Assembly: GCA_003694635.1 (NCBI GenBank)
Contig: RFKQ01000123.1
Coordinates: 1-50,889, forward strand
From: Planctomycetota bacterium
GTDB taxonomy: Bacteria; Planctomycetota; J132
Reading direction: 5' to 3'
DNA: 50,889 bases
Below are positions 3,947 to 44,747 of this stretch, piece after piece; position 1 is the stretch's first letter, and the number at the start of each line of letters is the position of its first letter. Under the pieces are notes generated by a model. That model was not told where the DNA came from. It made no database searches and saw only the letters and a program-made list of their open reading frames with translations. A program made the translations under genes and the position numbers.

Positions 3947-4024
3947 TCTAATCTTGACAACCCTCTACTTTGCAACAAAATTTTTTACTGAAAACCTTCC
4001 CTCAGCAAGAAACGGAAAAATCCC

Positions 4025-4993
4025 TTGAAATACCAACAAATCGTAGATCTCAATAAATATCAAATCGTACGGGAAATCGCCGTCGGCGGCATGGGAATTG
4101 TGTATGAAGCCATCCAACACGGAATTGAGGGGTTTCGAAAAACAGTGGCCCTTAAGATTATTCAAGAAGAATTCTCCAATGACGCAGAATTCGTGGAAAT
4201 GTTTATCGGAGAAGCTAAACTCGTCGCCGATCTTGTCCATCAAAATATCGTCCAAATCTATCAACTAGGCAAAATGGCCCACTCCTACTACATTGCCATG
4301 GAATACATCAATGGCGTGGATTTGAAAAAATTTATCGATCGGCACATTGAACTGAAACGCCAAGTTCCCCCCGATATCGCTGCCTTTATCATCAGCCGCA
4401 TCTGCCGCGGGCTGGAATATGCTCATAAAAAAAAAGATAGACAAGGCCGCCCCCTCAACGTCGTCCATCGCGATATCTCCCCCGCCAATATCATGCTCAC
4501 CTGGGAAGGGGTGGTCAAAATCACCGACTTCGGTGTGGCCAAAGCCGCCAACCTTATGCGGGATCGCGAAGGGGAAATCCTAATGGGCAAAGTCCGCTAT
4601 ATGTCGCCGGAACAAGCCAAATACCTCCCCACAGACGCCCGTTCCGATATCTTCTCCCTCGGCGTAGTTATGTATGAACTGCTCACTTCTCAGCCCCTTT
4701 TCGAAGCAAGCAATACACAAAAAACCATCCACAATATTGTCCACTCCTCTCCAATTCCCCTAGAAAATATCTGCCCCCATCTCGACCAAGAACTCATTGA
4801 TATAAATAAAAAAGCTCTCGAAAAAAACCCAAAAAAACGCTACCAAAGCGCCGGAAAAATGGGATATGACCTGGAGCATTATATGTATCATGACCGATTT
4901 GGCCCAACAAATGTAACCCTGGAAAAATATCTGCGAGAACTCTTCCCCGACGGAGATTACCAAACCCTCGACAGCTCCTTTGAAGCCAAATAA
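4025..4993 (+). CDS. Hanks-type Ser/Thr protein kinase (kinase domain only)
   Basis: GGMGIVYEA glycine loop, VALKII, HRDISPANIM catalytic loop, DFGVAK, YMSPEQ, DIFSLGVVMYELLT. Start is probably TTG at 4025; there is no in-frame ATG upstream of the glycine loop. Confidence 0.9.
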   Translation: MKYQQIVDLNKYQIVREIAVGGMGIVYEAIQHGIEGFRKTVALKIIQEEFSNDAEFVEMFIGEAKLVADLVHQNIVQIYQLGKMAHSYYIAMEYINGVDLKKFIDRHIELKRQVPPDIAAFIISRICRGLEYAHKKKDRQGRPLNVVHRDISPANIMLTWEGVVKITDFGVAKAANLMRDREGEILMGKVRYMSPEQAKYLPTDARSDIFSLGVVMYELLTSQPLFEASNTQKTIHNIVHSSPIPLENICPHLDQELIDINKKALEKNPKKRYQSAGKMGYDLEHYMYHDRFGPTNVTLEKYLRELFPDGDYQTLDSSFEAK

Positions 4994-8123: not shown

Positions 8124-8369
8124 AGTTTTTTACCTTATCTTTGGAGTTCATAATGCATTTTTACCGCCTTTTTTTAATTATAGCACTTGTTTGTTTGGTG
8201 TCAAGAAGAGGAAAGTATTCGTCCCTTCCAGAAAATAAATTAAAAAAAAATAATCCTTAAATTTAGGAAACCTCCCTCCCACTTCCCTGTCTAAGTGAGA
8301 GAAAACGCTCAAAAACACCTTATGCTTTCTTTCTCAAAATCTTCAAACAATTCAATAAGGAGAGAAAAA

Positions 8370-9983
8370 ATGCGGAGAAAAAAATCTGGATGGATTTTCG
8401 CTGCCATTGCTCTGACCTTTTCGATGATCGGCTGCTCCTCAAGAGCCTATAAATCCTCACCACTCACGGAGGCCAAAGGAAAAACCTGGGCAGCTCCTCA
8501 GTACGCAGGCGAAGAGCGATGGCAAGCCTCCTTAGATCGCCCTCACCAAGAAGAGAAAAACCAATGGAATCGCGAGCGCTATAAACGCATCTATGAAAAT
8601 CCCTTCCGGAGCGTCAAAGACCACCCTCTCTCCACCTTCTCCATCGACGTGGACACCGCTTCCTATTCCAACATTCGCCGCTTCCTGAATCGGAACCAAC
8701 GTCCCCCCAAGGATGCCGTCCGGATCGAAGAGCTGATCAACTACTTCTCCTACAACTACCCCAACCCCAAAGGCGAGGTCCCCTTCTCGGTCAATGTGGA
8801 AATCGCCGGCTGCCCTTGGAACCTAAAACATCGCCTGGTGCGCATTGGGCTCAAGGCCAAAACGGTGGAGTTTTCCAAACGCCCCCCGAGCAATTTGGTT
8901 TTCCTAATCGATGTCTCCGGCTCTATGGCCGCTCCCAATAAACTCCCCCTTTTGAAGAAGGCGTTTCGAATACTTCTCCAAAACCTTGGCGAAAAGGATA
9001 GGGTGGCCATCGTGGTCTACGCCGGCCAAGAAGGCCTAGTACTCCCTTCCACACCGTGCTCGCAAAAGGAAACCATCTTAAGCGCCCTGAACAACCTCGA
9101 ATCCGGAGGCTCCACCAATGGCGGAGCAGGCATTCAACTGGCTTATCGCGTGGCGGTGGAAAACTTTATCCCCGGCGGCATCAACCGCGTAATCCTCGCC
9201 ACAGACGGCGACTTCAACGTAGGCATCACCGACGAAGGCGCCTTGACCCGCCTGATCGAAGAAAAGGCCAAAAGCGGAATTTTCCTCACCGTTTTGGGGT
9301 TTGGCATGTACAACCTCAACGACTCCACCATGGAACAGCTCGCCGATAAGGGAAACGGAAACTACGCCTATATCGATACCATCCAAGAAGCGAGAAAAGT
9401 CCTCTCCGAAGAAATCAGCTCCACCCTGATCACCGTCGCCAAAGATGTGAAAATCCAAGTGGAATTCAACCCCCTCCAGGTGAGCGCCTATCGACTGATT
9501 GGCTATGAAAATCGAATTTTGAGAAAAGAAGACTTCAACGACGACAAAAAAGATGCCGGCGAAATCGGCGCCGGGCACACCGTCACCGCACTCTACGAAG
9601 TGGTGCCCGCTTGGCAATCCTCTCCCACCACCAACGTGGAACCTCTAAAATATCAGAGCGAACGAACCCTGACCAGCGCAGCCAAATCGGGGGAAATGCT
9701 CACCATTAAACTCCGCTACAAAGAACCCAACAGCGAGAAAAGCAAGCTGATCTCCTTCCCCATCACCGATCCGGGCAAAAAATGGTCCCAAGCTACCCCG
9801 GAATTTAAGTTTGCCGCCGCGGTGGCCGCCTTTGGAATGCTGCTAAGGGATTCAAAATTTAAAGGCAATTCCAACTTCAACATGGTCCTTGAGCTCGCCC
9901 AAGAAGGCCTCCCCTACGATAAATATGGCTACCGGCGAGAGTTCCTCTCTCTGGTGCAAAAAGCCAAAGAACTAAGCCAATAA
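8370..9983 (+). CDS. YfbK-like von Willebrand factor type A lipoprotein
   Basis: ATG at 8370 preceded by AAGGAGAG. Lipobox SMIGC. NPFRSVKDHPLSTFSIDVDTASYSNIRRFLNRNQRPPKDAVRIEELINYFSY (YfbK N-terminal signature), MIDAS DVSGSM, ATDGDFNVG, and a C-terminal DUF3520-like region. Confidence 0.85.
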   Translation: MRRKKSGWIFAAIALTFSMIGCSSRAYKSSPLTEAKGKTWAAPQYAGEERWQASLDRPHQEEKNQWNRERYKRIYENPFRSVKDHPLSTFSIDVDTASYSNIRRFLNRNQRPPKDAVRIEELINYFSYNYPNPKGEVPFSVNVEIAGCPWNLKHRLVRIGLKAKTVEFSKRPPSNLVFLIDVSGSMAAPNKLPLLKKAFRILLQNLGEKDRVAIVVYAGQEGLVLPSTPCSQKETILSALNNLESGGSTNGGAGIQLAYRVAVENFIPGGINRVILATDGDFNVGITDEGALTRLIEEKAKSGIFLTVLGFGMYNLNDSTMEQLADKGNGNYAYIDTIQEARKVLSEEISSTLITVAKDVKIQVEFNPLQVSAYRLIGYENRILRKEDFNDDKKDAGEIGAGHTVTALYEVVPAWQSSPTTNVEPLKYQSERTLTSAAKSGEMLTIKLRYKEPNSEKSKLISFPITDPGKKWSQATPEFKFAAAVAAFGMLLRDSKFKGNSNFNMVLELAQEGLPYDKYGYRREFLSLVQKAKELSQ

Positions 9984-10098: not shown

Positions 10099-12129
10099 CT
10101 AAAGCCAAAACGGAAACTGGCACCCTAGCCCTCCCTTCCAGCCCTGTTCAACCAAACGACCAATCTCCTCCCCCCTCAACAGCGGCGCCGGAAGAGAGGA
10201 AAAGCGCCTGATCCCCGATAAAAAACAAAAAGGAACCATCCCCCGCAACGCCCGCTCTATCCCCCCCTCCGACCTCAACCACAACGGCTGAGCAAGTGTC
10301 CCTCCATAAGGCGGGGTTTTGCTCACCCAAAACGCCTCCGTGTCGCTGATCCGAAACACCGCCCCCAACGGAGGCGATTCCACCCACCCGCGGCGAAGAG
10401 CATAAATCCTAGGCGCACCCTTGGTCATTAGCTCCAACAAATCCCCACCCCTTGGCCGAGCAAATTCCTCCCACTCCTGGCGCTCCTTCTGAGAAAGCCT
10501 CCCCCACACCTGCACAAAAATCCGCCTCTCCACCCAATTTCCCAAAAGAGCAGGCCAGCTCTCCCCTTCCTCCAACACCCCAAGCCGGTAGCCCAAAAAA
10601 ACCCCCTCATGGGAATACGCGCGCAAAAAATAACCCCGCCTCCCCTCCCATTCCGGAGAAAATACCCTCTGCAGCCCCACCACCACCTCCCCCACCTCGG
10701 ACTGAATCCGGAAAAGACTATGCCCCGTTCGCACCAAAATCGCCACCACCACATCCTGCAAACGCTCCCGACGGCGCAGCCCCGAAGGGTACACCCATAC
10801 GCAGGGAACACCGCCAGATTTTTGTAGCGTCAGATAGCGCAAACGAAGAAGGGCATTCCGCTGGGACAGAGGAGAAGAGCGAGGCAAAAAATAAAGAAAA
10901 ATATGACTATCTTCCCGCCTTTCCAAAAACGCCTCTAGCTTGGAAAAATCCGCCGTGTAAAGCTTCGTTTGAAAAGCTAGCACGGATTGGATCCCAAAGC
11001 TTTTCAACTCTTGCCGGAGATGATACAAAAAATTTTTTACAGAAAGCCTGGTAAAATGGACAATTCCTAAGCGAATTTCCTCAGAGAGAAAAGGACTCCG
11101 CCCGCAAATACCCGCCCGCTGAATGCAGCTGTACATTTCCGTCCCTCCCCACTCCACCTCCTCCCCCGTCGCTAGCCTTACCTTGCGGCCAAGCCCCAAC
11201 TCCTCTAAAGAAGGAAAGCAACTCGGATGGGTGTCGCTCCGGTAAGCGTCCGAAAGGTAGCCCCGAGCCTTCAAAAGAGCGGCAACCTTTCCAATAAGCT
11301 GAATCCGCAACCGCACCGGCATGGAAAGCGCTTTCCACGCCAGGGAGGACTTTAGGCCAAACCGCTCAAAGTCCCTCGGGCGCAGATGAATGTAAAGGGC
11401 ACCACTTGCGTAGTCGTAAGTGTAGCGCTCCGTCTGAATCTGGACCACCCATTGCTCCCCGCCAGCCCGCTCCAAAAAACGCTGCATCCAAGGCTCCTGC
11501 GAAAGGGAGATCAAACGCCTCCGATGATCCGATAAGCGCCCGATAACCTTGCCAACCCTTCCCTCCAAAAACGTATCCTTGGCCAACACCCCCAACCCCA
11601 CCAACCCCTGCAAGTCCGCAGAGGTTTGGCTAAATTCCCAAAGATCCAGCTTGTGAACCAAGTACGAGCGAATGGAGAGGGAAAGGGAGGGCCTACCCTC
11701 CACCACCCACGGGCGCAATTCGCACCAGCGCAACACCTTCGCCACCCCAAAACTCTGGCCTTGAGCCAAAAGTATCTTGGGAGTGAGCAAATCCTGCAAA
11801 ATCATCCCCCGACGCAGAAATTCCAAACGAGCCAGATCATCGCCCTGCCAATCGGGCAACAGCTCCAGGTTTTGCAAAGGGCTAAAAACCTCCCGCTGCC
11901 GCTGCCATAAACGCTCCAAAAACTCCCATTTTTGCGCCTCCTCCAGCCGATAATCGCTCAAAATCCACTCCCGATGCCATATCCAATGCCCCGTGGGAAA
12001 AGCCCGATGCAGCTCGTACAACAGCTTGCCAATCAGGGAAAAATCCCCCGCCTCCGCCACAGGACGATAGGCGTAAAGAGAAGGGAGCTTTTGAAAACTT
12101 ACCGGAAAAACCTCCGCCAATAGGCGCAT
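10099..12129 (-). CDS. Highly diverged long prokaryotic Argonaute-like protein, predicted catalytically inactive
   Basis: ~676 aa, similar to TtAgo at 685 aa. C-terminal blocks are colinear with the remembered TtAgo MID/PIWI sequence: GEVVVGLQRV vs AELAVGFDAG, RRIFVQVWGRLSQKE vs SRVLLLRDGRVPQDE, DLLELMTKGAPRIYALRRG vs DLVSVRKSGGGRVYPVQG, GTLAQPLWLRSE vs GTPRPLKLVHE, SSLPAPLLRGEEIGRLVEQG vs RLPAPLHLADRLVKEVGRLG. Hydrophobic C-terminus. ATG at 12129, two codons after a TTG at 12135. Confidence 0.55.
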   Translation of the reverse strand: MRLLAEVFPVSFQKLPSLYAYRPVAEAGDFSLIGKLLYELHRAFPTGHWIWHREWILSDYRLEEAQKWEFLERLWQRQREVFSPLQNLELLPDWQGDDLARLEFLRRGMILQDLLTPKILLAQGQSFGVAKVLRWCELRPWVVEGRPSLSLSIRSYLVHKLDLWEFSQTSADLQGLVGLGVLAKDTFLEGRVGKVIGRLSDHRRRLISLSQEPWMQRFLERAGGEQWVVQIQTERYTYDYASGALYIHLRPRDFERFGLKSSLAWKALSMPVRLRIQLIGKVAALLKARGYLSDAYRSDTHPSCFPSLEELGLGRKVRLATGEEVEWGGTEMYSCIQRAGICGRSPFLSEEIRLGIVHFTRLSVKNFLYHLRQELKSFGIQSVLAFQTKLYTADFSKLEAFLERREDSHIFLYFLPRSSPLSQRNALLRLRYLTLQKSGGVPCVWVYPSGLRRRERLQDVVVAILVRTGHSLFRIQSEVGEVVVGLQRVFSPEWEGRRGYFLRAYSHEGVFLGYRLGVLEEGESWPALLGNWVERRIFVQVWGRLSQKERQEWEEFARPRGGDLLELMTKGAPRIYALRRGWVESPPLGAVFRISDTEAFWVSKTPPYGGTLAQPLWLRSEGGIERALRGMVPFCFLSGIRRFSSLPAPLLRGEEIGRLVEQGWKGGLGCQFPFWL

Positions 12130-12306
12130 GATCAAAATTTTTCCTTCGGGCTATTGAATGAAACTGTGCCGGAGGAAACCTACTCGCTCCTGTCCAAAAA
12201 CCGTCAGTATAGCGTCGCTAAATCTGAACGAAATTCCTATTTTATGCAAATCAAGAGAGCATTCAAGAAAAAAACGATAATCTTTGTCCTTAAAGTCCTT
12301 AAACAA

Positions 12307-13080
12307 TCATTCCGCCCCCACTTGAGCGGAAATGGGAGGGAGGACAAATACCTCCGAAAAGTCCGTCAGCGAATGAAATGGCTCCACCTCCACTCGCAGA
12401 AATACCTTGGCCCGCCCTTGGACCGACTTCACCCGCCCCACAAGCGCCCCCGGCGGGAAACATCCCTCCCAACCAGTGGCCACCAGTACATCCCCCTCGC
12501 GGACATCGGCATCAAACTGCAAATGCTTGGAGACCAATTTCCCCACCGCCTCCCCCTGCAAAATAAACGTCTGCCGAGTTCGCCGGTTGCGCACAGAAAT
12601 CTTAAAACTCCCTAGCAAAGCCACTCTCGCAAGATGGGAATAGACCATCTCCACCCTTCCCACCACCTGCTTTCCCACTAAAACAGCAGAATGAAGGCGC
12701 ACCCCTTCCCTCTCTCCTGCCGAAATGTAGAGCTTTTTCTCAAACGGCGACGGGGAAAACACCCAAACCACCTGAGCCGAAATCACCTCCCGACGGGAAG
12801 AGAGCACCACCCTCAACTGCCGAAATTGCGCCAATATTTCCTTGAAACGAAGGATTTGAACCTGAAGCTGAGCCAATTTCTCAGAAGTGCCCTCCCCTCG
12901 TTTGGAAACAGACACACGAGGCAAATGCCTCCAAAACAAAGGGGAAATCCAACCATATACCCCCGCATATTTCAACAACAGCGGCGTAGCCAACAAAATA
13001 AAAAACAAAAGCACTCCCCAAATACGCCGATCAAGCATAACCCTAAGCCGCCTCCTCCATATCCTCCAATAAGCTCGCAT
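12307..13080 (-). CDS. mreC: Rod shape-determining protein MreC
   Basis: N-terminal TM, coiled-coil (LAQLQVQILRFKEILAQ), then beta-rich core ISAQVV..LYISAGEREGVRLHSAVLVGKQVVGRVEMV..ARVALL..REGDVLVATGWEGCFPPGALVGRVKSV. An alternative ATG at 13038 (MLDRRIW) would remove the 38-nt overlap with mreB. TGA stop. Confidence 0.85.
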   Translation of the reverse strand: MRAYWRIWRRRLRVMLDRRIWGVLLFFILLATPLLLKYAGVYGWISPLFWRHLPRVSVSKRGEGTSEKLAQLQVQILRFKEILAQFRQLRVVLSSRREVISAQVVWVFSPSPFEKKLYISAGEREGVRLHSAVLVGKQVVGRVEMVYSHLARVALLGSFKISVRNRRTRQTFILQGEAVGKLVSKHLQFDADVREGDVLVATGWEGCFPPGALVGRVKSVQGRAKVFLRVEVEPFHSLTDFSEVFVLPPISAQVGAE

Positions 13081-14092
13081 AAAAATCCAAATTCTCCAAA
13101 AACACCCCCGTCCCCCGCACCACGCAAGTCAACGGATCCTCCGCCACCCGAACCTCCAACCCCAAACGGCTCGCAAAAAACGCATCGATCTTTGGCAACA
13201 ATGCACCACCGCCCGATAGGGTGATGCCCTTTTCCGCTAAATCCGCCGCCAACTCCGCCGACGCCTTCTCCAACACCCCCTCAATGGCCTGCCCAATCTT
13301 CTCCAAACACGGCACAATCGCCTCGCGAACCTCCTGCGAATGCAGCTCCACCGACGCAGGCCTCCCGTCTAACCCCTTCCCCCGCACCAGCATGCTCAAC
13401 TCCTGCTCCAGCTCCATCGCCGAACCCAAGCGAAGCTTGATCCGCTCCGTGGTCTGCTCCCCCACCACAAGCTGATGGCGCTGGCGCACATAGTCCCGTA
13501 TCGCCTTGTCCATCTCGTCCCCCCCGATTTTCACGCTGTCAGCGATCACAATATCGGTGAGCGAAAGAATGGCAATCTCCGTGGTCCCCCCCCCAATATC
13601 CACGATCATATTGGCGCTAGGCTCCTCAATCTTCAAACCGGCCCCAATGCCCGCAGCCAAACACTCCTCAATCAAGTACACCTGCCGCGCTCCAGCCTTT
13701 TGCGCAGACGTGTAAACCGCTTTCCTACCCACCTGAGGAATGTTGTAAGGCACAGCAATCACCACAAGAGGACGCACAAACATCCTCTGATTGTGCACCT
13801 TTCTGATAAAATAGCGCAACATCATCTCCGCCACATCGTAATCGGAAATGACCCCCTCCCGCAACGGCCGCACCACCTCCACCTTCGACGGAGCCTTGCC
13901 TAGCATCTCTTTGGCTAAATGCCCCACCGCCTCCCCCTCCATCAACACCTCTTGAGTATCCCGCCTCACCGCCACCACCGACGGCTCTCGCAACACCACC
14001 CCCTCCCCACGAACATACACCAGCGTGTTCGCTGTGCCCAAATCTATCCCCATATCAGTGGAAAATCGACCCCAAAGCTTATTCCAAAACAT
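13043..14092 (-). CDS. mreB: Rod shape-determining actin homologue MreB
   Basis: 349 aa. DMGIDLGTANTLVYVRGEGVVLREPSVVA, IAVPYNIPQVGRKAVYTSAQKAGARQVYLIEECLAAGIGAGL, MIVDIGGGTTEIAILSL, ITLSGGGALL. Confidence 0.95.
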   Translation of the reverse strand: MFWNKLWGRFSTDMGIDLGTANTLVYVRGEGVVLREPSVVAVRRDTQEVLMEGEAVGHLAKEMLGKAPSKVEVVRPLREGVISDYDVAEMMLRYFIRKVHNQRMFVRPLVVIAVPYNIPQVGRKAVYTSAQKAGARQVYLIEECLAAGIGAGLKIEEPSANMIVDIGGGTTEIAILSLTDIVIADSVKIGGDEMDKAIRDYVRQRHQLVVGEQTTERIKLRLGSAMELEQELSMLVRGKGLDGRPASVELHSQEVREAIVPCLEKIGQAIEGVLEKASAELAADLAEKGITLSGGGALLPKIDAFFASRLGLEVRVAEDPLTCVVRGTGVFLENLDFYASLLEDMEEAA

Positions 14093-14478
14093 TTCATCTT
14101 CTGCTCTTAAATGAAAGCGCTTTTATGAGAATTGCTGAGGTGCATGTGTTTCCCTTCTTGAAAATGCGCTTGATTCAACAACATGTTGTGATAAAATAAT
14201 AAATAAAATGTTCTCTCCTCTCCACCACCGCATCTCTTCTCCTAAAAACAACCCCAAACAGGGGAGGTAAAGAAAAATCTTCTTCTTTCGTTCGTTAACC
14301 CTTCAGAATTTCCTATGAAGTTATCGTCCAAAAAAATAAAAAAGTTTATAAAAAACTCCATAAACCTTAAATTTTCTACCTAACCCGTGAAACGAAAAAA
14401 AGTAAAAAATGAATGGAAAAATGGAACAGAATCTTAAAACAAAGAATATCACCGCTCCGACCCAAGGGAGATATGCCA

Positions 14479-16422
14479 ATGGGACCAAACGCATATAATT
14501 TAAAGACATGCGGCTTTCTGCTAGCTGCTGGACTACTTTCCCTCCTCAGCGGCTGCTCCACCGCAGACTACCGGGAATTAACCCAATCCAAACTGAAAAC
14601 AAAAAAGAAAACCTACGCCTTCTCCACCCTTCAAAAAACCTCCCCCCTCTCCCTAAAAGTCGCCCTTATGCCCCTCAAAACCTCCTACCTAGACAAAGAA
14701 AAAGAGCGAAAAAAAATCGAAAAAAACAACCCCGAAATCCATACCGTCCAAATCGAAAAAAACAAATTCCTCCAGCGCATCCAATCAGTGCTGAAAAAAG
14801 CAAACGTCTTCCAAAGCGTGGATATAGCCCAACCCATCGACGAAGAAGAACTCCACATCAAAAATCCAACCGAACGAAGGAAAAAACTCCTAGAACTTTA
14901 CCTCACCCAAGCTTGGATGAAACAACAAGACCTCCTCCTTGAATTCGACTTGAAAGAGTACAAACTCGCTTACAAAGGCGTAAGCACATGGCGCTACATT
15001 TTTGCCATGTTTACGTGGTTCTACGTCTGGTTCCCCTCCTGGTGGATAGCGGATGAAAAATACGAAGCCCATATTATTCTTAAAACAAAAGTATATAGCG
15101 TTCATTCCAAAAAACTATTGGCTACGTATCGCATCGAAAAAAAACACCTCGACTACCTCGATGACTGGGACCGAGGCTGGAAAATTCTCGGAATCTGGAC
15201 CGTTCCCTCCTACCTCTCCAACTCCAACTGGGAAGATATCAACAACTGCACCGGCAAATATACCCTCAACCAGGTCTGGCTCGCACTCATCAAAAAGTTT
15301 AAAGTGGACTTCCGCCGCTATCTGCGAACTCCTGAATTTGAGGATAAAATGAAAAAAACCCTGGCGATTGTCATCGGCCTTTCCAAATACGAAGATACCG
15401 CCATCCCTAGCGGAGTGCAGTACGGAGCAAACGATGCGAGAAAACTCGCTCAGTTCCTCACCCCAAAAGTACGTCGCCTCCACCTCCTCGTGGACAGCCA
15501 GGCTAGCAAAGCGAAAATCGAGGAACTCCTCGAGAATTTTTTTGCCAAAAGAGTGCGTTCTTGGGACACGGTTGTGTTTTATTTCTCCGGATTTGGCGTC
15601 GCCCTACCCACTGACAAGAGGGACTACACGCTCTACCTCGTGCCCTACCGGGCAAAAGTAAACAACCTCGCCAATACGGCGATTCCTGTCCAAAAGCTGC
15701 TCCAAGCCATCACCGCCCTTCCCGCCAAGCACCACTGGATCTTTCTAGACACCTCCTTCGGGGGTACCAGCGAGGGAAAATCCCTCACCCGGGAAGTGCT
15801 AGGCATAGAGACGAAATGGAAGCGAGTGTCTTTTGACCAGCGGAACCAGTGGAAAAATCAATTTGCCCAGCAACTGGAGAAAGCCGCCCAAAAAACCTTT
15901 AGCTCCCTTGCAAATACCACCGTCCTCCTACCCTGCCACCCCGTCCAAGACTGCCTACAACTCCACGAAAACCAGCAGGGCCTGTTCAATTTTTTCCTTC
16001 TGAAATCGTTTTCAAAATACACCAAAGGACGCTCGATATCCTTTTTCGAAGCCTATCGGTATATGAAGCGAAAAATTCTTTCTCAGGCAAAACGGAGAAA
16101 CCGAAAAAAGCAAATTCTCCAACGCTTTTACAAAAAATTTATTTTCGATATGAATTATTCCCTAAAAAAAGACCTAAACTCTGGCAAGTGGACTCCATCC
16201 TTGCAAGAAGTGTTTCAACTCAACCAAATCTCCCTCCCGGCCAATATCATCGTGCGGGTTATCGAACCCAATCAGCGTTGGAGAATCCATAGCCCCGATA
16301 CCAACCAAGTGTTCATCATTCAAGCCAAAAAGGAAAACCTTCAAGTCTTTGAAGAGGTTCCACTCGCCCTTAGCTATGCCATTCCAACCCATTCCATCCA
16401 CCACTGCCCAAAGGGAGCCTAA
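14479..16422 (+). CDS. Lipoprotein with caspase-fold (Peptidase C14-like) domain lacking the catalytic His/Cys dyad
   Basis: GGGAG sits 8 nt before the ATG at 14479. Lipobox LLSGC. Caspase-like core LAIVIGLSKYEDTAIPSGVQYGANDARKLAQFL..VVFYFSGFGVAL..YLVPYRA..HHWIFLDTSFGG, where SGHG is SGFG (Phe codon 15592-15594) and D-x-C-H-S-G is DTSFGG (Ser codon 15754-15756). Confidence 0.6.
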   Translation: MGPNAYNLKTCGFLLAAGLLSLLSGCSTADYRELTQSKLKTKKKTYAFSTLQKTSPLSLKVALMPLKTSYLDKEKERKKIEKNNPEIHTVQIEKNKFLQRIQSVLKKANVFQSVDIAQPIDEEELHIKNPTERRKKLLELYLTQAWMKQQDLLLEFDLKEYKLAYKGVSTWRYIFAMFTWFYVWFPSWWIADEKYEAHIILKTKVYSVHSKKLLATYRIEKKHLDYLDDWDRGWKILGIWTVPSYLSNSNWEDINNCTGKYTLNQVWLALIKKFKVDFRRYLRTPEFEDKMKKTLAIVIGLSKYEDTAIPSGVQYGANDARKLAQFLTPKVRRLHLLVDSQASKAKIEELLENFFAKRVRSWDTVVFYFSGFGVALPTDKRDYTLYLVPYRAKVNNLANTAIPVQKLLQAITALPAKHHWIFLDTSFGGTSEGKSLTREVLGIETKWKRVSFDQRNQWKNQFAQQLEKAAQKTFSSLANTTVLLPCHPVQDCLQLHENQQGLFNFFLLKSFSKYTKGRSISFFEAYRYMKRKILSQAKRRNRKKQILQRFYKKFIFDMNYSLKKDLNSGKWTPSLQEVFQLNQISLPANIIVRVIEPNQRWRIHSPDTNQVFIIQAKKENLQVFEEVPLALSYAIPTHSIHHCPKGA

Positions 16423-16426
16423 AAAA

Positions 16427-19400
16427 ATGTCCAATAGAAAGAAATGGGAAACCTCCGTTGTCTCCAAGATCGCGCTGAGAAAAGGCATTATCGATCAAGA
16501 AACCCTCCAAGACTGCATTCTAGAATTAGAGATCAGTCCAGAAGACTCCTCCCTTTTAGAAATCCTAGAATCAAAAACCAATATCGATGCCAAAACCTTT
16601 AAAAACCTCAAGGCGATGGTGGATTTCGCCCTCTCCCAAGACAAAGATACCCAAGAGGATGTCCTTCTAGCGCAAATCCTAGTGGACGTCCAATTTCTCA
16701 CCCAAGGACAGCTGGAAAATGCCCTCCTCGAGCAAAAACGCCGCCTAAACCAAACCGGGAAGTCCCTAAAATTGGAGCATATCCTCGTGGAGAAGGGTTT
16801 CATCTCAGAAGAACGCCTGCAAAGCGTGCTACAAATGATGGCCAAAATCCCCCTGCAGTGCGAAGAATGCGGCACCAAATACGTTTGGGGAGATTTCCAC
16901 AACACCAACCACGCCCGATGCCAGAAATGCGACTTTGCCCTGGTCCCCTACCTGGAGGAGGAAATGGATGAGGCCGCCACCCTAGTGGCCGATGAAAGCG
17001 GTGTGCAAAATCCTCCAAGCCAGTCATCCATAGAGCAACAAGACACTTTGGCGGCCAATGAAACCGCTGCGGCAGACCAACCTCCCCACAAAGCAGTGAG
17101 AGCTTCCGAAGGAAATTCCACTCATTCCCCCGCAGGAACCGACTCCCACGATATCGGCAACCTCACCTCCGCAGAAACCTACGCCGGCAACAAAATCGAC
17201 ACAGGAGACCCAGCCGCACAGACCTCAGGAGGGCAAAAAGGGACCGATCCGTTCATCGGCCAAGTGCTCGGGGAGGTGAAGCTGATAAAAAAACTCGGCC
17301 AGGGCGGTATGGGAGCCGTCTACCTTGGCGAACACCTCCACCTCGCCAGACAAGAGGCCATCAAAATCCTCCCCAGAGAGTTCGCCAACAACCCCGAACA
17401 AGTCACCAGATTCAAGCGAGAAGCCCGCGCCGCCGGAACCCTGGACTCGCCTCACATTGTACGAGTGCACCACATTGGCGAACACAAAGGAATCCACTAT
17501 ATCTCCATGGAGTTTGTCAAAGGCTGTAGCCTGCAAGATATCGTCAACGAGAAGAAAAAACTCGACGCCAAGGAAGCCATTGAGTATATGAAACAGGCCG
17601 CCAAAGGGCTGATTGTAGCGCATAAAAAAGATATTGTCCATAGAGACATCAAGCCGGATAACCTTATGGTCACCGAAGAGGGAGTGGTCAAGGTAGCCGA
17701 CTTTGGCTTGGCCCGAAAAACCCAAGATACCATGGGAGTAACCCAATCCGGCTCCATTTTGGGCACCCCTTATTTTATGTCTCCCGAACAGTGCCGCGGT
17801 GAAAAAACCGATATCCGCTCAGATATCTACTCCCTCGGCGCTACCTTCTACTATATCCTCACAGGCCAGCATCCCTTTGTGGGCGATTCGCCCATGACCA
17901 TCCTGCTAAAACATATCCACGAGGAAGTGCCCGATATCAAAAAATTTGCCCCCGAGGTCCCCGATTCGCTCAAAAATATCATCGAAAAAATGATGGAAAA
18001 ACTCCCCGAAGATCGCTACCAGACCTTGGAGGAATTCCTCGAGGATATCAAAAAGCTCGAAGAGGGCGAGGAAATCGCCATGTCCGAGGGCAAGCGGCGG
18101 CGCATATTTCGCCGAAGGCTGCGCCGGGCTATCGCCTTTGCCCTCTTTGTGGCCGTGGTGGTCTTTCTCTTCTCTTACAAACCAGGCCAAAGCGAGGCGG
18201 AAATTCGACAAAAACTCTACCAAGAAAAACTCCAACAGGCCCAACAACTCCTTACCGCCGGGGACTTGGAAAACGCCATCGAACAATTCGAGGATGCTCG
18301 GAAGCAACAGAATACCTCAGAAATTCGCCACGCCCTGCTTAAGAGCTATACCCAACTCCTCAAAAATCTTCTAAAAAAAGCCGATCAACAGGCTCCCCAA
18401 CTTCCCAAAACCAAAGAGAAACTCGTTCAGCTTCTCCAACAGGCCAAATCTATCCTGAGAAAAGCCCAAAACATCAACCCCCAATTTGACCTCTCTTCCG
18501 AAGAAAAGCGCCTCTTTCAACACTACCTCCTTCTAGCACAACATCAAATCAAAAGCGCCCAAAAACTCTTTCCGCTCTTGAAAAAGAAAGGAGCGGAAAA
18601 AACAAGAAATCTTGCGCGCTTGCTGATCGAAGAAGCCAAGAAATACTTTCAAGAAGCCCGCTCCCTAAAGGGCGATAAACTTGCCCTCGCCCAATCCCAT
18701 CAAAAAATCTTCTCCCTATTTATCCCCCTCATCGCCTCTTTTTTGCAAGATGAAGACGCCAAAAACGCCCAATCCACCTTGAATCAAGCCAAAAAATTTT
18801 ATCCAGAGGGGCAAAAGACCCTAGAATCCTGGGAGGCGAAAATCCAACAGCTGGTCCTGCTCAAACAAGCTAGAGCCCTTCTTCTAAAAGCAGTCCGGTT
18901 TATCCAACCCAACATTTCCACCCTCTCCCCCTCCACCCTTCCCTCGATAAAAAACTCTCTTCCTAAGGTCTCCGAACTTCAACTCAACAACGCCGAAAAG
19001 TACGCCAACCAAGCCATCCTCAAATCCCCCAACTACTCCTTAGCTGCCAAAGTCCGAGCTATGCTTCGCTCAGAGCAGCAACGTAGGCTTGAACTGCGCA
19101 AACAGGAACAAGCGCGCTTGAAAAGAAAAGAAGAGACCACCAAAAAAGCAAAAGGCTACCTCAGCCTTCTCGAAGAAATCTCGAAAACACATACCCTGGC
19201 CCAATTTCCCCTCGAGAAAGCTCAGCTTGCCCTAAAACAACTCCAAACTCTAATCGCCGCCTATCAAAAAGATAAGTTTTTCCAAGAAGCCAAAAACCTA
19301 GAAAAAAACTATCTCTTTCACCAACATTACTTTGAAATCGCTCAAACATATCAAAACATCTTGGCCAAAATCCAAGAAAATTTCCTCGAGGACCGGGGAA

Positions 19401-20671
19401 AAAATCTAGGCGCCCTCTCCCTCTCCAAACAACTCCTCCAACAACTCAACCACAACCCCAAATACCAACCCTTTGCCAACTATATTCCCACCATCTCCAA
19501 AACTCTCCAAAGCATCCGAATGCGCCTATTTGATACATACAAGGAAAAAGCGGAAAAAATCAAACGCATCGACAAGGAAAAAGCCAAAATTTACGTCAAA
19601 AAAGCCCTGAGCTTCGTCCACGACGATCAATCCGTTATTGAACTACTTGCCGAACTCAATACCCCTGAAAATATGGTCTACATTCCCGCCGGAGAATACC
19701 AGCGCTTCTACGAAGACCTCCCTCCCAACACCACAACCCCCGAACAGTACTTTCGCCTAAACTCTAGCATCTATATGGGCAAATACGAAGTCACCAACCA
19801 AGAATATTTCCAATTTGTCAAAGCCGGTGGCTACAACAACCCAAAATTCTGGTCCCCCCAAGGCTGGGCCCTCTTTCACGGCAAAACCAAAATCTACAAA
19901 CCCTGGCCAGAAACTTGGCAAAACGGCAAATACCCCGCCGGCACTGAGCGTTTTCCCGTCTCGGGAATTAGTTACTGCGAAGCAGAAGCCTACTGCCGCT
20001 GGAAAAGCCTAACTCTACCCGGTACCCGACTTCCTACCCATTGGGAATGGGAAGCCGCGGCGGGATTCCTGCAGCAAAAAAACTATATCTTTAAGGCCAG
20101 CCTCGCCTATCTAAAAGAATTAGAAGCAAAAAAAATTTCCCTCAACTTCCTCAAACTCCTCTCGGAAAAATCCAACCTCGCCCTTCAAAACCTAACCGTG
20201 ACCAAATCCCCCCTAGCTCCCATCTGGTTCCTCGTGGATAAATCTAGAAATCTTCAGCTGCAAATCGTCCGCGAAAACCAAGGACTAAAAGTCTATAAAA
20301 TTGTCCACCGACGGGCCCAATATCCCTTACTAGGCGGGAAGTGGAAAGCGGACTTTGGCCAAATTATCACCCAATACGAAGCCCCTAGACCCGTGGGGAA
20401 ATGGCGGCTGGATGTAAGCTTAACCGGCTGCTATGATATGGCGGGCAACGTCTCCGAATGGGTGAAGCGTCCAGACCTTAGAAATAAAGAAGAGGCCTCG
20501 TTCAAAGGAGCATCCTTCGATTCCACCAATCCAAAAGTGCACGCTCACGTTACCTACAACGAATTTATCGCCTCAAAAAGCGACAGATTCGAAGATGTAG
20601 GCTTTCGAATCTGTGTGGACACAAGCACCTATTTGCAGAAAAAGGAGACCAAGCGTGCAAAAAAGAAGTAA
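16427..20671 (+). CDS. Giant multidomain Ser/Thr kinase: T2SSE_N/MshEN-like repeats, zinc ribbon, Hanks kinase, TM, long helical region, C-terminal FGE-sulfatase (SUMF1) domain
   Basis: ATG at 16427, 5 nt after the upstream stop. Kinase motifs GQGGMGAVYLG, HRDIKPDNLM, DFGLAR, SPEQ. TM IAFALFVAVVVFLFS. FGE motifs YMGKYEVTNQEYFQFVKAGGY, RFPVSGISYCEAEAYCRW, LPTHWEWE, GCYDMAGNVSEWV, KGASF. Confidence 0.9.
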   Translation: MSNRKKWETSVVSKIALRKGIIDQETLQDCILELEISPEDSSLLEILESKTNIDAKTFKNLKAMVDFALSQDKDTQEDVLLAQILVDVQFLTQGQLENALLEQKRRLNQTGKSLKLEHILVEKGFISEERLQSVLQMMAKIPLQCEECGTKYVWGDFHNTNHARCQKCDFALVPYLEEEMDEAATLVADESGVQNPPSQSSIEQQDTLAANETAAADQPPHKAVRASEGNSTHSPAGTDSHDIGNLTSAETYAGNKIDTGDPAAQTSGGQKGTDPFIGQVLGEVKLIKKLGQGGMGAVYLGEHLHLARQEAIKILPREFANNPEQVTRFKREARAAGTLDSPHIVRVHHIGEHKGIHYISMEFVKGCSLQDIVNEKKKLDAKEAIEYMKQAAKGLIVAHKKDIVHRDIKPDNLMVTEEGVVKVADFGLARKTQDTMGVTQSGSILGTPYFMSPEQCRGEKTDIRSDIYSLGATFYYILTGQHPFVGDSPMTILLKHIHEEVPDIKKFAPEVPDSLKNIIEKMMEKLPEDRYQTLEEFLEDIKKLEEGEEIAMSEGKRRRIFRRRLRRAIAFALFVAVVVFLFSYKPGQSEAEIRQKLYQEKLQQAQQLLTAGDLENAIEQFEDARKQQNTSEIRHALLKSYTQLLKNLLKKADQQAPQLPKTKEKLVQLLQQAKSILRKAQNINPQFDLSSEEKRLFQHYLLLAQHQIKSAQKLFPLLKKKGAEKTRNLARLLIEEAKKYFQEARSLKGDKLALAQSHQKIFSLFIPLIASFLQDEDAKNAQSTLNQAKKFYPEGQKTLESWEAKIQQLVLLKQARALLLKAVRFIQPNISTLSPSTLPSIKNSLPKVSELQLNNAEKYANQAILKSPNYSLAAKVRAMLRSEQQRRLELRKQEQARLKRKEETTKKAKGYLSLLEEISKTHTLAQFPLEKAQLALKQLQTLIAAYQKDKFFQEAKNLEKNYLFHQHYFEIAQTYQNILAKIQENFLEDRGKNLGALSLSKQLLQQLNHNPKYQPFANYIPTISKTLQSIRMRLFDTYKEKAEKIKRIDKEKAKIYVKKALSFVHDDQSVIELLAELNTPENMVYIPAGEYQRFYEDLPPNTTTPEQYFRLNSSIYMGKYEVTNQEYFQFVKAGGYNNPKFWSPQGWALFHGKTKIYKPWPETWQNGKYPAGTERFPVSGISYCEAEAYCRWKSLTLPGTRLPTHWEWEAAAGFLQQKNYIFKASLAYLKELEAKKISLNFLKLLSEKSNLALQNLTVTKSPLAPIWFLVDKSRNLQLQIVRENQGLKVYKIVHRRAQYPLLGGKWKADFGQIITQYEAPRPVGKWRLDVSLTGCYDMAGNVSEWVKRPDLRNKEEASFKGASFDSTNPKVHAHVTYNEFIASKSDRFEDVGFRICVDTSTYLQKKETKRAKKK

Positions 20672-30144: not shown

Positions 30145-30359
30145 AATTCATCTCCTCTCTCTCGGAAAGCTAAAAAAACCGCGCAAAGACTCCTTCTCAA
30201 TCCTTAAAGCCGTCGCTCCATGAATACTCCCTCAGAGCCCATTGGCTCTTAAGAAAAAATCCCCAAAAACCCGAAAAATCCCTAACCCTCCCCTTGACAA
30301 AGCCGCAAAAATTTGGCAAAATGCCCCCAAAACCCTCTAGCGGATTAGGAACGGCTTCC

Positions 30360-30911
30360 ATGAAAAATCCTATCGAAGAAGCCATAGAACTCCTCCTCCA
30401 AGAAATAGATAGCGAAATCGCACAAACCCAAACCTACGCCGAAAAAGCTCTAAAAGAAAAAAAATTCACTCAAGTCGAAACATATATCCAGCAAATCCAA
30501 CAATTGGAAAACTTCCACCAAAAAGTAAAACTCCTCCTCCAAGACTGGAAACAGCTCCACCCCTCGCCACCACCTGCCAAATCCAACCAAACACCCGTTA
30601 AAAGACTCTCCAAAGGCAAAGCTACCCCCCAAAACGCCTACCGCCGCGCTATCCTCGAAAGCCTCGTAGAGTTGGGAGGCGCAGCTAAGGTCCAAAACGT
30701 CCTAAACAAAGTCGAGCAAAAAATGAAATCCAACCTCAATTCCTATGACTACCAACCCCTCCCCTGCAGCGGAGAAATCCGCTGGCGAAACCGGGCAATG
30801 TGGTGCCGCCTACACCTCGTCCGAGAAGGTTTGCTTCACCCCAACTCCCCTCACGGAATTTGGGAAATCTCCAAAAAAGGCCGCAAAGCCCTAGAAAATG
30901 GCTCTATCTAA
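30360..30911 (+). CDS. Coiled-coil protein with C-terminal Mrr_N-like winged-helix domain
   Basis: ATG at 30360 after AGGA. C-terminal YRRAILESLVELGGAAKVQNVLNKVEQKM..GEIRWRNRAMWCRLHLVREGLL..GIWEISKKGRKAL resembles the Mrr N-terminal winged helix. No nuclease domain. Confidence 0.45.
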   Translation: MKNPIEEAIELLLQEIDSEIAQTQTYAEKALKEKKFTQVETYIQQIQQLENFHQKVKLLLQDWKQLHPSPPPAKSNQTPVKRLSKGKATPQNAYRRAILESLVELGGAAKVQNVLNKVEQKMKSNLNSYDYQPLPCSGEIRWRNRAMWCRLHLVREGLLHPNSPHGIWEISKKGRKALENGSI

Positions 30912-36427: not shown

Positions 36428-36707
36428 ACACTAAATATAAACAAAATTCTCCGAAAAAGTTATTTACTTTTGCTCGTCTATCAAAAATATTTAAAAATGC
36501 CGAATGATGAGTAACATGAAAATCCGACAAGAGCTAAAGAACACGAACTTTTATCCCACTGCCTAAGGCAAAAAAGTTTCTATCAATTTTCTCTATCTTT
36601 GGTATAGTTTTTGCTAAAAATTCTAAAATCCCACGGAAGTCAAGCTCTTCAAGTGGGATCGGATTTCCCAACAGTTTTCCATCTTTATTTTTTCTTTGGA
36701 GGTAACA

Positions 36708-37796
36708 ATGGACGAAAAAACCAAAAAGCAAGCCCTGGATTACGCTTTGGCTCAGATCAAGAAAAAGTGCGGACCGGGCTCCATTATGCGCTTGGGGACA
36801 AAGCACACAGCAAAAGTGGATACCATCTCCACCGGCTCCCTCTCTTTGGACTATGCCCTAGGAATTGGAGGGGTCCCCAAAGGAAGAATTGTAGAAATCT
36901 TTGGCGCCGAGTCCTCTGGCAAAACCACACTGGCTTTACATATTATCGCTAACGTTCAGAAGAACAAAGGAGTAGCGGTATTCATCGACGCAGAACACGC
37001 CTTAGATCCCAACTATGCCAAGAAATTAGGTGTGAACTTGGATACCCTTTTGGTCTCGCAGCCGGACTCTGGAGAACAAGCCCTAGAGATAGCCTCTTTA
37101 CTTACCCAAAGCAACGCCATTGACCTATTTGTCATAGACTCCGTGGCAGCCCTTGTTCCCCAAGCCGAATTAAATGGTGAAATGGGAGATGTCCACGTTG
37201 GTCTGCAAGCTCGCCTGATGTCCCAAGCATTGCGCAAAATAACTGGATACATTCATAAAAGCAACACATGCGGGATTTTTATCAATCAAATCCGAGAAAA
37301 AATAGGCGGCTATGGCAACCCAGAAGTAACCACCGGTGGAAATGCTCTAAAATTCTACGCATCCATACGAATCGCCATCCGCAAATCCAGCGCCATCAAA
37401 GATGGAGATCGCTTAAAAGGACACCGGGCTGTGGCAAAAGTGGTAAAAAACAAACTGGCTCCTCCTTTTCGAAGCGCCGAGTTTGACATTCTGTTCGACA
37501 AAGGCATCAACTGGGCCGGTGATGTGCTGGATTTAGCTGTGGCAGAAGGAATCGTAACGCGAAGCGGATCCTGGTATTCCTACGGAAATGTAAAGCTAGG
37601 CCAAGGCAGAGATAAAGTGGTGGAGTTTTTGGAAGAAACCCCTTCCGTACTGGTGGATATCGAAAGCGATGTCTTGGCAAAAGTCTATCCACAAGAACTA
37701 GCGCCCTCTACGAATACCAAAACAGAAGGGGAAAAGGAAAAAAAAGAGGAAAAAAAACCAGAGAATAAAGCGAAGAAAAAAATTATCAAATCCTAA
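36708..37796 (+). CDS. recA: Recombinase RecA
   Basis: GGAGG before the ATG at 36708. [60 protein letters not shown] (Walker A), [40 protein letters not shown]. Unusual Lys/Glu-rich C-terminal tail. Confidence 0.97.
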
Positions 37797-38272: not shown

Positions 38273-39403
38273 TTAAGTACTTTTTTCCCGATTCAAACGG
38301 CGAATGGATGATAAAAACTCCTTCAATCCTACTTCTTTGTTTTTCAAAAACCAATCTAGGTCGGGATATTGGAATTTCCTTGGATCTTCCTCTGCGTAAA
38401 GAAGCATAGCCCGCAGTTGCTTTAACAGCTGAGAGTCATATTCGCCGCCTAGATGGTACTTTTCCTTCTCTTGCCGAATGCGGTCCCACTCCTCCTCTGT
38501 GATTGAGCCGGAGGTTTTAAAATCCCGATAGCGATCCTGACAGCGATAAAAATCCTCTCTCTTCGCCTCAAACTCCAGTGCCAAACTCCCCAAACCATAC
38601 GGTCGAGCTCCTCCAATTTTATGGTGTAGATCCCCGCTTAAAGTCAGCTCAGTTTTTTTCCCTTTTAGGCTTTGATCCGGACATTCCACCTTAACCTCTA
38701 TCCCCTTCTCCAGCTCCAGGCAATAGAGCAAAACCCCTAATTCCTCTAAGGTAAGATTGTAAAATGTAAGGGCAAAATCAAACTCCACCCCCGCTGGGAG
38801 ATATTTAATTTTTCTATTTAATTTTGAGTCCTCCTTAAAAGGAGCGTTGGTCCAAATATTAGGTTGATGGAAATAGAATTTGCGCCGCCGACGATCGGAG
38901 TAAAAAGCCTCGTGCTTGGGTTGAGGCGCCCCAGGACGAATGGTAAGCGTCCCTCTACTCGGTGTTTTTCCACTCTTTTGTCTCAAAACTAAATCCTGGA
39001 AAAATACCTTGCCAGGAAACACCACATTTTTTGAATTTTCATCCCTCTGGGCCATACCAAACATAGCGCAAGCCATGCACAGTTGCTTGTCCGATTTGCA
39101 AGCGTTTTTTACCCCATCTCCTGCTACCACGTTGCAGCCTTTTCCTACCACTTCCACAAGGTTGCGAAGCATTCCCTTAAAAGAGGTGGCGGGAATGGCA
39201 TCTACTTTGGTATCAGCTACCTTCGTTCTAAAAGTATTTCCATCTCTTCCCCCAACAAAGATTGGGGTAATGGCCCGGGCGATTCCCTGAATTTTTCCCC
39301 CAAATCCTTGGTACTTTTCGTGGGTTTGCGGCTCATAGCGACGAACCTCCTCCGTAGGGCCAATAAGCCGGTAAGGGTTCCAGAAGGCTTCATTTTTAGG
39401 CAT
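38273..39403 (-). CDS. Type III RAMP protein (Cas7-group, TIGR03986-like)
   Basis: N-terminal FWNPYRLI, IPATSFKGMLRNLVEVV (RAMP motif), CMACAMFG zinc-knuckle/FG motif, C-terminal glycine loop HKIGGARPYGLGSL. AGAGGAG RBS. Confidence 0.7.
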   Translation of the reverse strand: MPKNEAFWNPYRLIGPTEEVRRYEPQTHEKYQGFGGKIQGIARAITPIFVGGRDGNTFRTKVADTKVDAIPATSFKGMLRNLVEVVGKGCNVVAGDGVKNACKSDKQLCMACAMFGMAQRDENSKNVVFPGKVFFQDLVLRQKSGKTPSRGTLTIRPGAPQPKHEAFYSDRRRRKFYFHQPNIWTNAPFKEDSKLNRKIKYLPAGVEFDFALTFYNLTLEELGVLLYCLELEKGIEVKVECPDQSLKGKKTELTLSGDLHHKIGGARPYGLGSLALEFEAKREDFYRCQDRYRDFKTSGSITEEEWDRIRQEKEKYHLGGEYDSQLLKQLRAMLLYAEEDPRKFQYPDLDWFLKNKEVGLKEFLSSIRRLNREKST

Positions 39404-39497
39404 ATCGATTTTACTCCTCTTTCATGGGATTAGAAAAGTTATACTGCTAAGATGGGATAGAAAAAAAGATGTCCCGTCCGGTTAAGAAGAAGTGGAA

Positions 39498-40034
39498 TTA
39501 GGAATATCCGACCAAACTATGGTAGCGAAGAAACTGAACTTCATGAGCTTGATTGCACCACGCTTCCAGAACAAGTTTCACTCGCTTTGCCGGCGTCTCC
39601 AGCGGATAGAAAATCGGGCGGGGAAGGATGGATTCTAACCAGGCGCCGGCAAGGCTCAAATCTTGTTTGCCGGCGGATTCTCCTTCGGAAGAGGTGAGGG
39701 AGTTTCTCTCACCCCAAAGAATATGAGCTTTTTGTTGCGTGGTAAGTCCCACCAGATGGGAGGAATGGTCCGCATCCAGTAAGCTCCAATCTTCCTCACC
39801 AAGAAAAACAGTGCGAAACACACCATCGGGCAATTTGCGCCACCTCCACTCCCCCGAAGGGCAAAATACCCGCCCCCAACTGTGATCATCGGAAATCCTT
39901 TCCTTCTGGAAGAAGTCAAAACACAGTTCGCTAGGCGAGGTGAGTACCATCCAAGCTCCTGAGGGAGGAGCCAGTTGTTGAAGCTTTGCTCTCCAATTTT
40001 CGAGGGATAGATCCTCGGCTTTTAAAACGGCCAT
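39498..40034 (-). CDS. Type III-D accessory protein, tentatively Csx19-like
   Basis: 178-aa Trp-rich ORF with a strong RBS (AAAGGAGGACCAAATG). It sits between two RAMP genes, the position Csx19 takes in III-D operons. No motif that I can recognise. Confidence 0.35.
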   Translation of the reverse strand: MAVLKAEDLSLENWRAKLQQLAPPSGAWMVLTSPSELCFDFFQKERISDDHSWGRVFCPSGEWRWRKLPDGVFRTVFLGEEDWSLLDADHSSHLVGLTTQQKAHILWGERNSLTSSEGESAGKQDLSLAGAWLESILPRPIFYPLETPAKRVKLVLEAWCNQAHEVQFLRYHSLVGYS

Positions 40035-40061
40035 TTGGTCCTCCTTTCCAGCATCAACAGC

Positions 40062-41033: not shown

Positions 41034-41054
41034 AAAACTCTCCTTTCTAAGGAT

Positions 41055-41900: not shown

Positions 41901-41913
41901 CACTCCTTTCTGT

Positions 41914-42384
41914 TTAGGATGGGGATATAGATGGATCATTTTTATTTATCTGATATAGGGCATGGCAGTAAAAATGCTCCAATAACGTGGCACCTAGTTT
42001 TTCTTGAAGAAGTTTTTGCAAGTTTTGCTTTTCTTTTTTGGAGGGAAAACTCTTCTTTTCTAAAAAGGAATCCAACTTCTGTTTAAGATAACTTTTTTTC
42101 TGGAGGTGAAAAATATCAAGAAAAATTTCCCAAAACTCAACGCCCTTATTCTCTTTTTTCAACTTTTCCCTCTGATGGCTAGCATAGGAGATAGCTTCCT
42201 GTAAGCCCCCTAAAGTAAAATAATTTTGTATAGACTTAATCTGATGCTTGGCGGGAAAGTTAGAACTAGAAAGTCTACCTAGCTCTTCTTCTATGTAAGA
42301 ATAGGAATCTTTTTCTAAAAATTCTTGACAATCTTGGCTTTGCAAAATCTCTTGCACCTTTTGTAAAATTTTCTCACTCACCAT
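41914..42384 (-). CDS. Helical small-subunit-like protein (second Cas11-like paralogue)
   Basis: 156 aa, composition looks helical. AKHQIKSIQNYF resembles the Cas11 (T/S)QLRKFY motif. Confidence 0.4.
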   Translation of the reverse strand: MVSEKILQKVQEILQSQDCQEFLEKDSYSYIEEELGRLSSSNFPAKHQIKSIQNYFTLGGLQEAISYASHQREKLKKENKGVEFWEIFLDIFHLQKKSYLKQKLDSFLEKKSFPSKKEKQNLQKLLQEKLGATLLEHFYCHALYQINKNDPSISPS

Positions 42385-42412
42385 TTTTTATCCTTCGCAA
42401 AAAGCCAACGTT

Positions 42413-43949: not shown

Positions 43950-43959
43950 AGTCAAGCTC

Positions 43960-44730: not shown

Positions 44731-44747
44731 ATTCCAGGCTCCTTTAT

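Follow-up and report, generated by a model that had tools for sequence, protein, structure and literature searches.

A gene on the reverse strand of a 50,889-nt contig from a Planctomycetota bacterium (RFKQ01000123.1 of assembly GCA_003694635.1, hereafter the window) encodes a protein of 678 amino acids (aa) that is a genuine full-length long prokaryotic Argonaute (pAgo). Judged from its aligned residues, the protein is catalytically dead and has a remodelled 5'-end pocket in the MID domain, and profile E-values together with a neighbour-joining (NJ) tree that includes active CtAgo-like relatives place it on the long-A side of the pAgos. Neither scans of its flanks nor the contexts of ten relatives yielded an effector gene adjoining the pAgo. 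The explanation that we prefer, at about even confidence, is that of a stand-alone, slicer-dead long-A pAgo, a divergent member of its clade, that would bind nucleic acid rather than cut it. The gene and its relevant parts are:

10099..12135, minus strand: long pAgo gene with a complete N-L1-PAZ-L2-MID-PIWI architecture, predicted to be catalytically inactive.
11206..12135, minus strand: half encoding N, L1, PAZ and the start of L2 (residues 1 to about 310), with approximate borders taken from the secondary structure of an AlphaFold2 (AF2) model.
10729..10851, minus strand: MID 5'-end pocket segment, with L429 (10851-10849), R433 (10839-10837), V446 (10800-10798) and R469 (10731-10729).
10168..10671, minus strand: PIWI tetrad positions Q489 (10671-10669), E525 (10563-10561), W544 (10506-10504) and E656 (10170-10168).
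10099..10113, minus strand: PFWL C-terminus, conserved across the family, and stop codon.

The open reading frame (ORF) runs uninterrupted for 678 codons from a TTG at position 12135, with AAGGA 6 nt 5' of the TTG; an alternative ATG start at 12129 would give a 676-aa product (P0001), for which an exact-sequence look-up found no record. A reading of the DNA made earlier from sequence alone (the sequence-only reading) had proposed a highly diverged full-length Argonaute, and this identification is borne out by several independent comparisons. The PADLOC pAgo model PDLC02396 aligned to residues 4-678 over positions 2-683 of its 683 (E 1.8e-78), phmmer against the PDB sequences retrieved CtAgo (9iad_A, E 1.4e-17, residues 43-648), and HMMER, run exhaustively over 1.84 billion representatives, recovered 226 relatives (best 2.7e-76, 83 of them below 1e-30), nearly all of about 700 aa, the nearest being 32% identical. 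The N and PAZ domains are present, as the alignment to CtAgo starts at residue 43 and that to family members at residue 4. Modelling with a 40-sequence alignment gave a mean pLDDT (predicted local distance difference test) of 88 and a pTM (predicted template-modelling score) of 0.87; from the single sequence the pLDDT was 34 and the model unusable. Foldseek matched the AF2 model exclusively to full-length Argonautes (CtAgo, AaAgo, CbAgo, TtAgo, PfAgo, PIWI and hAgo2), in alignments spanning 734-809 columns, with CtAgo best over all domains (template-modelling score, TM, 0.76; E 5e-44). The likeness to Thermus thermophilus Ago on which the sequence-only reading had built extends to the shared Argonaute fold, but the two proteins are related only distantly (profile E 4e-16, TM about 0.62).

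Argonautes of such divergence escape Pfam and NCBIfam annotation altogether: scans of the 678-aa protein against both gave no match, and PF02171 (PIWI), the profile by which the sequence-only reading would have had it recognized, did not appear even at E<=10. A word-indexed homologue search of about 15 billion proteins, whether queried with the protein alone or with the alignment of 40 sequences, returned only the window protein itself (a singleton); it missed all other family members, although these are representatives in the collection searched and some were part of the query alignment. A tblastn search of plasmids and a scan of genome contigs with the pAgo likewise produced no match.

The family lies on the long-A side because its profile ranks the long-A structures CtAgo (2.3e-136), AaAgo (4.3e-66) and CbAgo (6.9e-42) far above the long-B RsAgo (1e-10); KmAgo (2e-29) and TtAgo also score, and short pAgos reach 1e-10 to 1e-7. 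The clade placement that the sequence-only reading had left to be made is thus given by the profile E-values and by the NJ tree. In the alignment of 96 full-length representatives, which includes sets of 51 active and 41 inactive sequences, the core of the inactive clade was monophyletic in 56 of 60 NJ bootstraps, and the window pAgo, the longest branch of the tree, grouped with the inactive sequences in 49 of them. It also scored 49 bits higher on a hidden Markov model (HMM) of the inactive clade than on that of the active set (400 vs 351 bits). Two other inactive sequences, P0002 and P0014, look like separate, later losses of the tetrad, since they score better on the active HMM.

Membership of the other pAgo groups was considered and rejected. 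Against long-B stand the RsAgo profile E of only 1e-10 and the lack of a co-encoded nuclease, SIR2 or membrane effector gene in the scanned flanks, and against the short pAgos (SPARTA, SPARSA, SPARDA) the full length of the protein and the lack of an adjoining APAZ, TIR, SIR2 or DREN protein. APACE1 was dismissed as no Cas4 or PD-(D/E)xK family match occurred among the flanking ORFs scanned. An MpAgo type was set aside because MpAgo is absent from the PDB profile matches (E<=0.01), the gene does not lie between cas1 and cas2, and the Cmr genes of the window are 26 kb off.

Alignment columns of the catalytic tetrad were fixed from the published CtAgo residues D533, E574, D600 and D721 (PMC12094033). 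The DEDD tetrad occurs in 46 of the 51 active sequences and in none of the 41 inactive ones. The MID pocket is nearly invariant in the active set (Tyr in 50/51, Lys in 49/51, Gln in 50/51 and the second Lys in 51/51); in the inactive set the stacking Tyr is kept in only four sequences and the Gln has mostly become His or Leu, and the two Lys positions hold Lys or Arg in 35/41 and 37/41. Thirty of the 41 also retain the C-terminal PFWL. The window pAgo has Q489-E525-W544-E656 in place of DEDD, which means that, on the evidence of these residues, it cannot perform canonical slicing. The tetrad replacements had been correctly seen in the sequence-only reading: GLD has become GLQ at Q489, RDGR has become VWGR at W544, and the Asp is absent from the fourth position (E656). 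Its MID pocket reads L429-R433-V446-R469 in place of the family's Y-K-Q-K and departs from the Y/R-K-Q-K motif of canonical 5'-phosphate guide binders, both basic positions being conservatively kept. Here the earlier proposal was right about the change of Lys to Arg (R433) and one residue off in taking Gln to have become Cys, as it is a Ser that is replaced by C445 and the Gln by V446.

The C-terminal carboxylate of pAgos has a role in the MID pocket, and the window protein retains PFWL; the hydrophobic C-terminus noted earlier is thus that of the family. The conserved His of the LLHYG motif is gone through a two-residue deletion after L639. Of the 66 columns with at least 80% conservation in the family, 48 are kept in the window pAgo (47-65, median 59, in the inactive clade). 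Only two of the 18 losses precede residue 433; the other 16 (15 substitutions plus the lost His) lie from that residue onwards, a distribution that marks the N/L1/PAZ half as the constrained part. Mean pairwise identity in the PIWI domain is 53.5% among active members vs 33.8% among inactive ones, a difference that would fit a relaxation of constraint once catalysis had been lost.

Retention of PFWL, of both basic residues in the pocket and of the N/PAZ lobe makes it most likely that nucleic-acid binding has been preserved. On the preferred reading, the protein would load a short guide or bind the end of a nucleic acid, its preference at the 5' end being non-canonical, would recognize complementary DNA or RNA, and would act through binding without cutting. 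The outcome may be that invading or repeated DNA is sterically hindered in its replication or expression, with targets possibly being passed to unlinked host nucleases by analogy with RsAgo. Transcription would start from a promoter of its own, its place after the mreB and mreC genes being incidental.

Several points weigh against this explanation. With both the pocket Tyr and the pocket Gln gone, canonical 5'-phosphate guide binding may have been lost altogether. The window pAgo is also among the most degenerate members of its clade and has no close relative by which purifying selection could be gauged, and its NJ position could partly reflect long-branch attraction among fast-evolving sequences. 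The promoter-like and terminator-like matches next to the gene are weak consensus hits, and the view covers about 50 kb of the genome, so that an unlinked partner is possible elsewhere.

The sequence-only reading had expected a nuclease, SIR2, TIR or membrane partner, which applies to long-B and short pAgos, whereas the window pAgo is long-A. Pfam and PADLOC scans of its flanks found no nuclease, SIR2, TIR, APAZ or Cas4; the scanned neighbours matched generic kinase and caspase models but nothing specific to defence, and the absence of an adjacent effector that had been remarked on is therefore upheld. As no nuclease, SIR2, TIR or membrane effector adjoins the pAgo in the contexts of ten inactive-clade relatives either, lacking a partner is the normal state in the clade and no anomaly of this gene. 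Three arrangements recur among these relatives:

Synteny group A (L005/L006, L018): FGGY kinase, LspA, acetyltransferase, pAgo, CDP-alcohol phosphatidyltransferase, LGT.
Synteny group B (L007/L008, L019, L020): ZnuA/ABC, PMT_2, rhodanese, pAgo, followed by ParA in two cases.
Synteny group C (L001, L021): EPSP synthase 5' of the pAgo and an adenylate-cyclase/AAA_16 protein of about 1030 aa 3' of it.

Two of the relatives' contigs measure 1.1 and 2.5 Mb, which indicates a chromosomal location. Positional pAgo orthologues are 33-46% identical and their flanks 52-85%, so that the pAgo evolves faster than the flanking genes at syntenic loci; the flanking FGGY (about 70% identity) and ParA (73-85%) genes tie the synteny groups to related hosts. 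By contrast, the active relative P0004 has NurA/HerA, SMC-like ATPases and a DEAD/ResIII helicase as neighbours, in what looks like a defence island, a contrast that rests on this one active case.

These contexts are the main argument for a domesticated cellular function, in which the inactive clade, this gene included, would have left defence and taken up work on the chromosome, such as gene regulation or DNA binding linked to replication or segregation. The conserved housekeeping positions of groups A to C, on contigs of up to megabase size, and the divergence of the orthologues between better conserved flanks indicate long vertical inheritance, the only active relative examined sits among genes of another kind, and TtAgo has been reported to help complete replication (cited in PMC10620215). 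Yet fast pAgo evolution is equally expected of a gene in a defence arms race or under relaxed constraint, none of the three arrangements is found around the window gene, and the contrast with active members is drawn from a single context; we therefore consider domestication unlikely as an account of this gene. With still less confidence we put forward a speculation on the clade as a whole, namely that, having lost slicing and rebuilt its 5'-end pocket, it has passed vertically through related bacterial lineages at constant housekeeping positions and been domesticated for a non-defence chromosomal function, guide-independent or using unconventional guides, with the window gene as an independent deep offshoot, after mreBC, in a lineage not yet sampled.

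Several further features of the relatives' loci were observed. In group B the rhodanese gene lies 5' of the pAgo on the same strand (L007 7144-10139, L019 7080-10220, L020 7153-10142), with spacings of a 4-bp overlap, a 12-nt gap and a 70-nt gap, and at two of these loci a ParA/CbiA ATPase gene closely follows the pAgo; the rhodanese gene may be an operon partner of these pAgos. The proteins with Guanylate_cyc and AAA_16 domains downstream of the group C pAgos (L001 11446-14523, L021 12400-15519) share 57% identity over about 1030 aa. Locus L018 carries a SIR2-family gene (PF02146, 274 aa; 3961-4785, minus strand) about 3.2 kb 5' of the inactive pAgo P0045 and on the opposite strand; it adjoins an EndoIII-type glycosylase gene, four genes lie between it and the pAgo, and in L005, which is syntenic, its place is taken by a GAF histidine kinase gene. 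A CHAT/caspase-like protein is encoded directly convergent to the pAgo of L020 (10143-12308), and a Peptidase_C14 lipoprotein gene occurs 2.3 kb from the window pAgo (14413-16422, plus strand); the caspase-like neighbours are probably a coincidence.

The window pAgo might instead act, in the manner of long-B and short pAgo systems, as the sensing half of a two-part abortive-infection system, with the effector gene at another site in the genome. All characterised inactive pAgos depend on accessory effectors (PMC10620215, PMC12094033), only about 50 kb of the genome is in view, and within it are a type III-B-like Cmr module and a protein with an Mrr_N domain. However, the known partners share an operon with their pAgo and no such gene adjoins the pAgo here or in the ten relatives, the Cmr module is a separate gene block about 26 kb off, and the CRISPR-associated MpAgo was not among the PDB profile hits at E<=0.01, all of which makes such a system distinctly unlikely. 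Besides several RAMP proteins, the type III-B-like module (38273-46508, minus strand) encodes Cas10/Cmr2 (44748-46508) and a protein resembling Cmr3 (42765-43955); a CRISPR array was not detected in any part of the window. The Mrr_N (restriction-enzyme N-terminal domain) protein and recA are encoded at 30294-30911 and 36696-37796. Two Ser/Thr kinase genes occupy 4025-4993 and 16349-20671, the larger kinase being fused to an FGE-sulfatase domain, and the PADLOC 'PD-T4-6' matches of both reflect the generic kinase domain only.

A decaying relic, that is a once-active pAgo drifting towards a functionless pseudogene, would account for a count of conserved columns at the low end of the family, for the concentration of losses in MID and PIWI, for the singleton status and longest branch, and for the missing His of LLHYG. 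It is difficult to reconcile with 678 codons that hold no stop or frameshift, with an N/PAZ half that keeps all but two of its conserved columns, and with a confident full-length model. The GC content and skew of the gene are those of the surrounding DNA, which implies long residence of the gene without disruption, and we regard decay as very unlikely. The G-rich coding strand to which the sequence-only reading had drawn attention is real, although it is a strand-wide property of the window and not particular to pAgo, mreB and mreC: the plus strand has more C than G over its entire length, irrespective of gene orientation, with a negative and near-uniform GC skew (-0.1 to -0.43) and a positive AT skew, an unusually strong asymmetry. 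The match in composition and skew does not show anything specific to mreBC.

The immediate surroundings of the gene, with the neighbours that had been named earlier, mreC and a convergent vWA lipoprotein gene, in the places given for them, are:

12307..14092, minus strand: mreC (12307-13080) and mreB (13043-14092), upstream of the pAgo gene on the same strand; context only.
8295..9983, plus strand: vWA/YfbK-type lipoprotein gene, convergent and downstream of the pAgo gene; context only.
12136..12306, minus strand: mreC-pAgo spacer of 171 nt, AT-rich (38% GC vs 53-57% in the flanking genes).
12266-12239, minus strand: promoter-like TTGAAT-16-TAAAAT in the spacer, a consensus match only.
12310..12331, minus strand: terminator-like hairpin at the mreC stop codon, with an 8-bp stem and a weak T tail.

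In the window, neither mreD nor pbp2 nor rodA comes after mreB-mreC, and the pAgo gene occupies the usual mreD slot. Functional coupling to MreB and MreC, for instance through expression linked to cell shape or the cell cycle, would suit this position on the same strand, 171 nt 3' of mreC with no mreD-sized ORF between; it is nevertheless extremely improbable, as mreBC is in none of the ten relatives' contexts, no pAgo was found in the flanks of seven mreB loci from species-representative genomes (a weak test, the loci being distant at <=50% MreB identity), and the terminator-like and promoter-like sites part mreC from the pAgo gene. The conserved linkage that the sequence-only reading had thought worth looking for was accordingly not found in these contexts and distant loci. 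Among the seven loci, recovered by a search that relies on shared 8-mers, metagenome-assembled genomes of Latescibacterota gave the best matches to the window MreB, and its host lineage seems poorly sampled. The mreBC-pAgo linkage is probably incidental, and the pAgo gene, to judge from the spacer, is probably monocistronic with a promoter of its own.

Among known systems, CtAgo (Chroococcidiopsis thermalis, APACE1, PDB 9IAD) is the nearest solved relative by both sequence and fold, with the same six domains and a similar length, although the two proteins share only about 20% identity. CtAgo slices with an intact DEDD tetrad, its MID pocket is conserved and its gene is accompanied by that of ACE1, a nuclease of the Cas4 family, whereas the window pAgo has QEWE, L-R-V-R and no such neighbour. 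AaAgo (Aquifex aeolicus) and CbAgo (Clostridium butyricum), the second and third closest solved structures by profile and by fold (TM 0.66-0.74), are likewise stand-alone long-A proteins but, unlike the window pAgo, active slicers. The best functional analogy is RsAgo (Rhodobacter sphaeroides), an inactive full-length pAgo with guide-directed DNA binding; it differs in belonging to another clade (long-B), in keeping a canonical YK-type pocket and in having a predicted nuclease gene downstream. The MpAgo-type MID-OH pAgos of type III-B CRISPR loci resemble the window pAgo in being long-A and in having a hydrophobic residue in place of the first pocket Tyr, and a Cmr module is also present in the window, but they are encoded between cas1 and cas2, whereas the window gene lies far from its Cmr genes.

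With its substituted tetrad and non-canonical MID, the window pAgo fits the long-A PIWI*/MID* category of Ryazansky et al. (2018, PMC6299218). About 21% of long-A pAgos are known to lack the tetrad, and 75 pAgos on several branches, some of them near the MID-OH long-A group, to have a non-canonical MID, none being characterised (PMC6299218, PMC12094033). Our literature search found no paper addressing inactive or non-canonical-MID long-A pAgos, and the available text of the 2018 survey (PMC6299218) treats the category only statistically and describes neither the joint loss of tetrad and pocket, nor the housekeeping synteny seen in the clade, nor this singleton. The window pAgo is thus a new, extreme member of a known, uncharacterised category, and the pattern across the clade is of more interest than the single gene: tetrad and pocket are lost together, partners are absent, housekeeping synteny is vertically maintained and evolution is fast. 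Every characterised inactive pAgo acts via a co-encoded effector; a clade of about 40 clusters, with for example its syntenic rhodanese-pAgo and LspA-pAgo-LGT lineages, makes the role of stand-alone, dead long-A pAgos testable.

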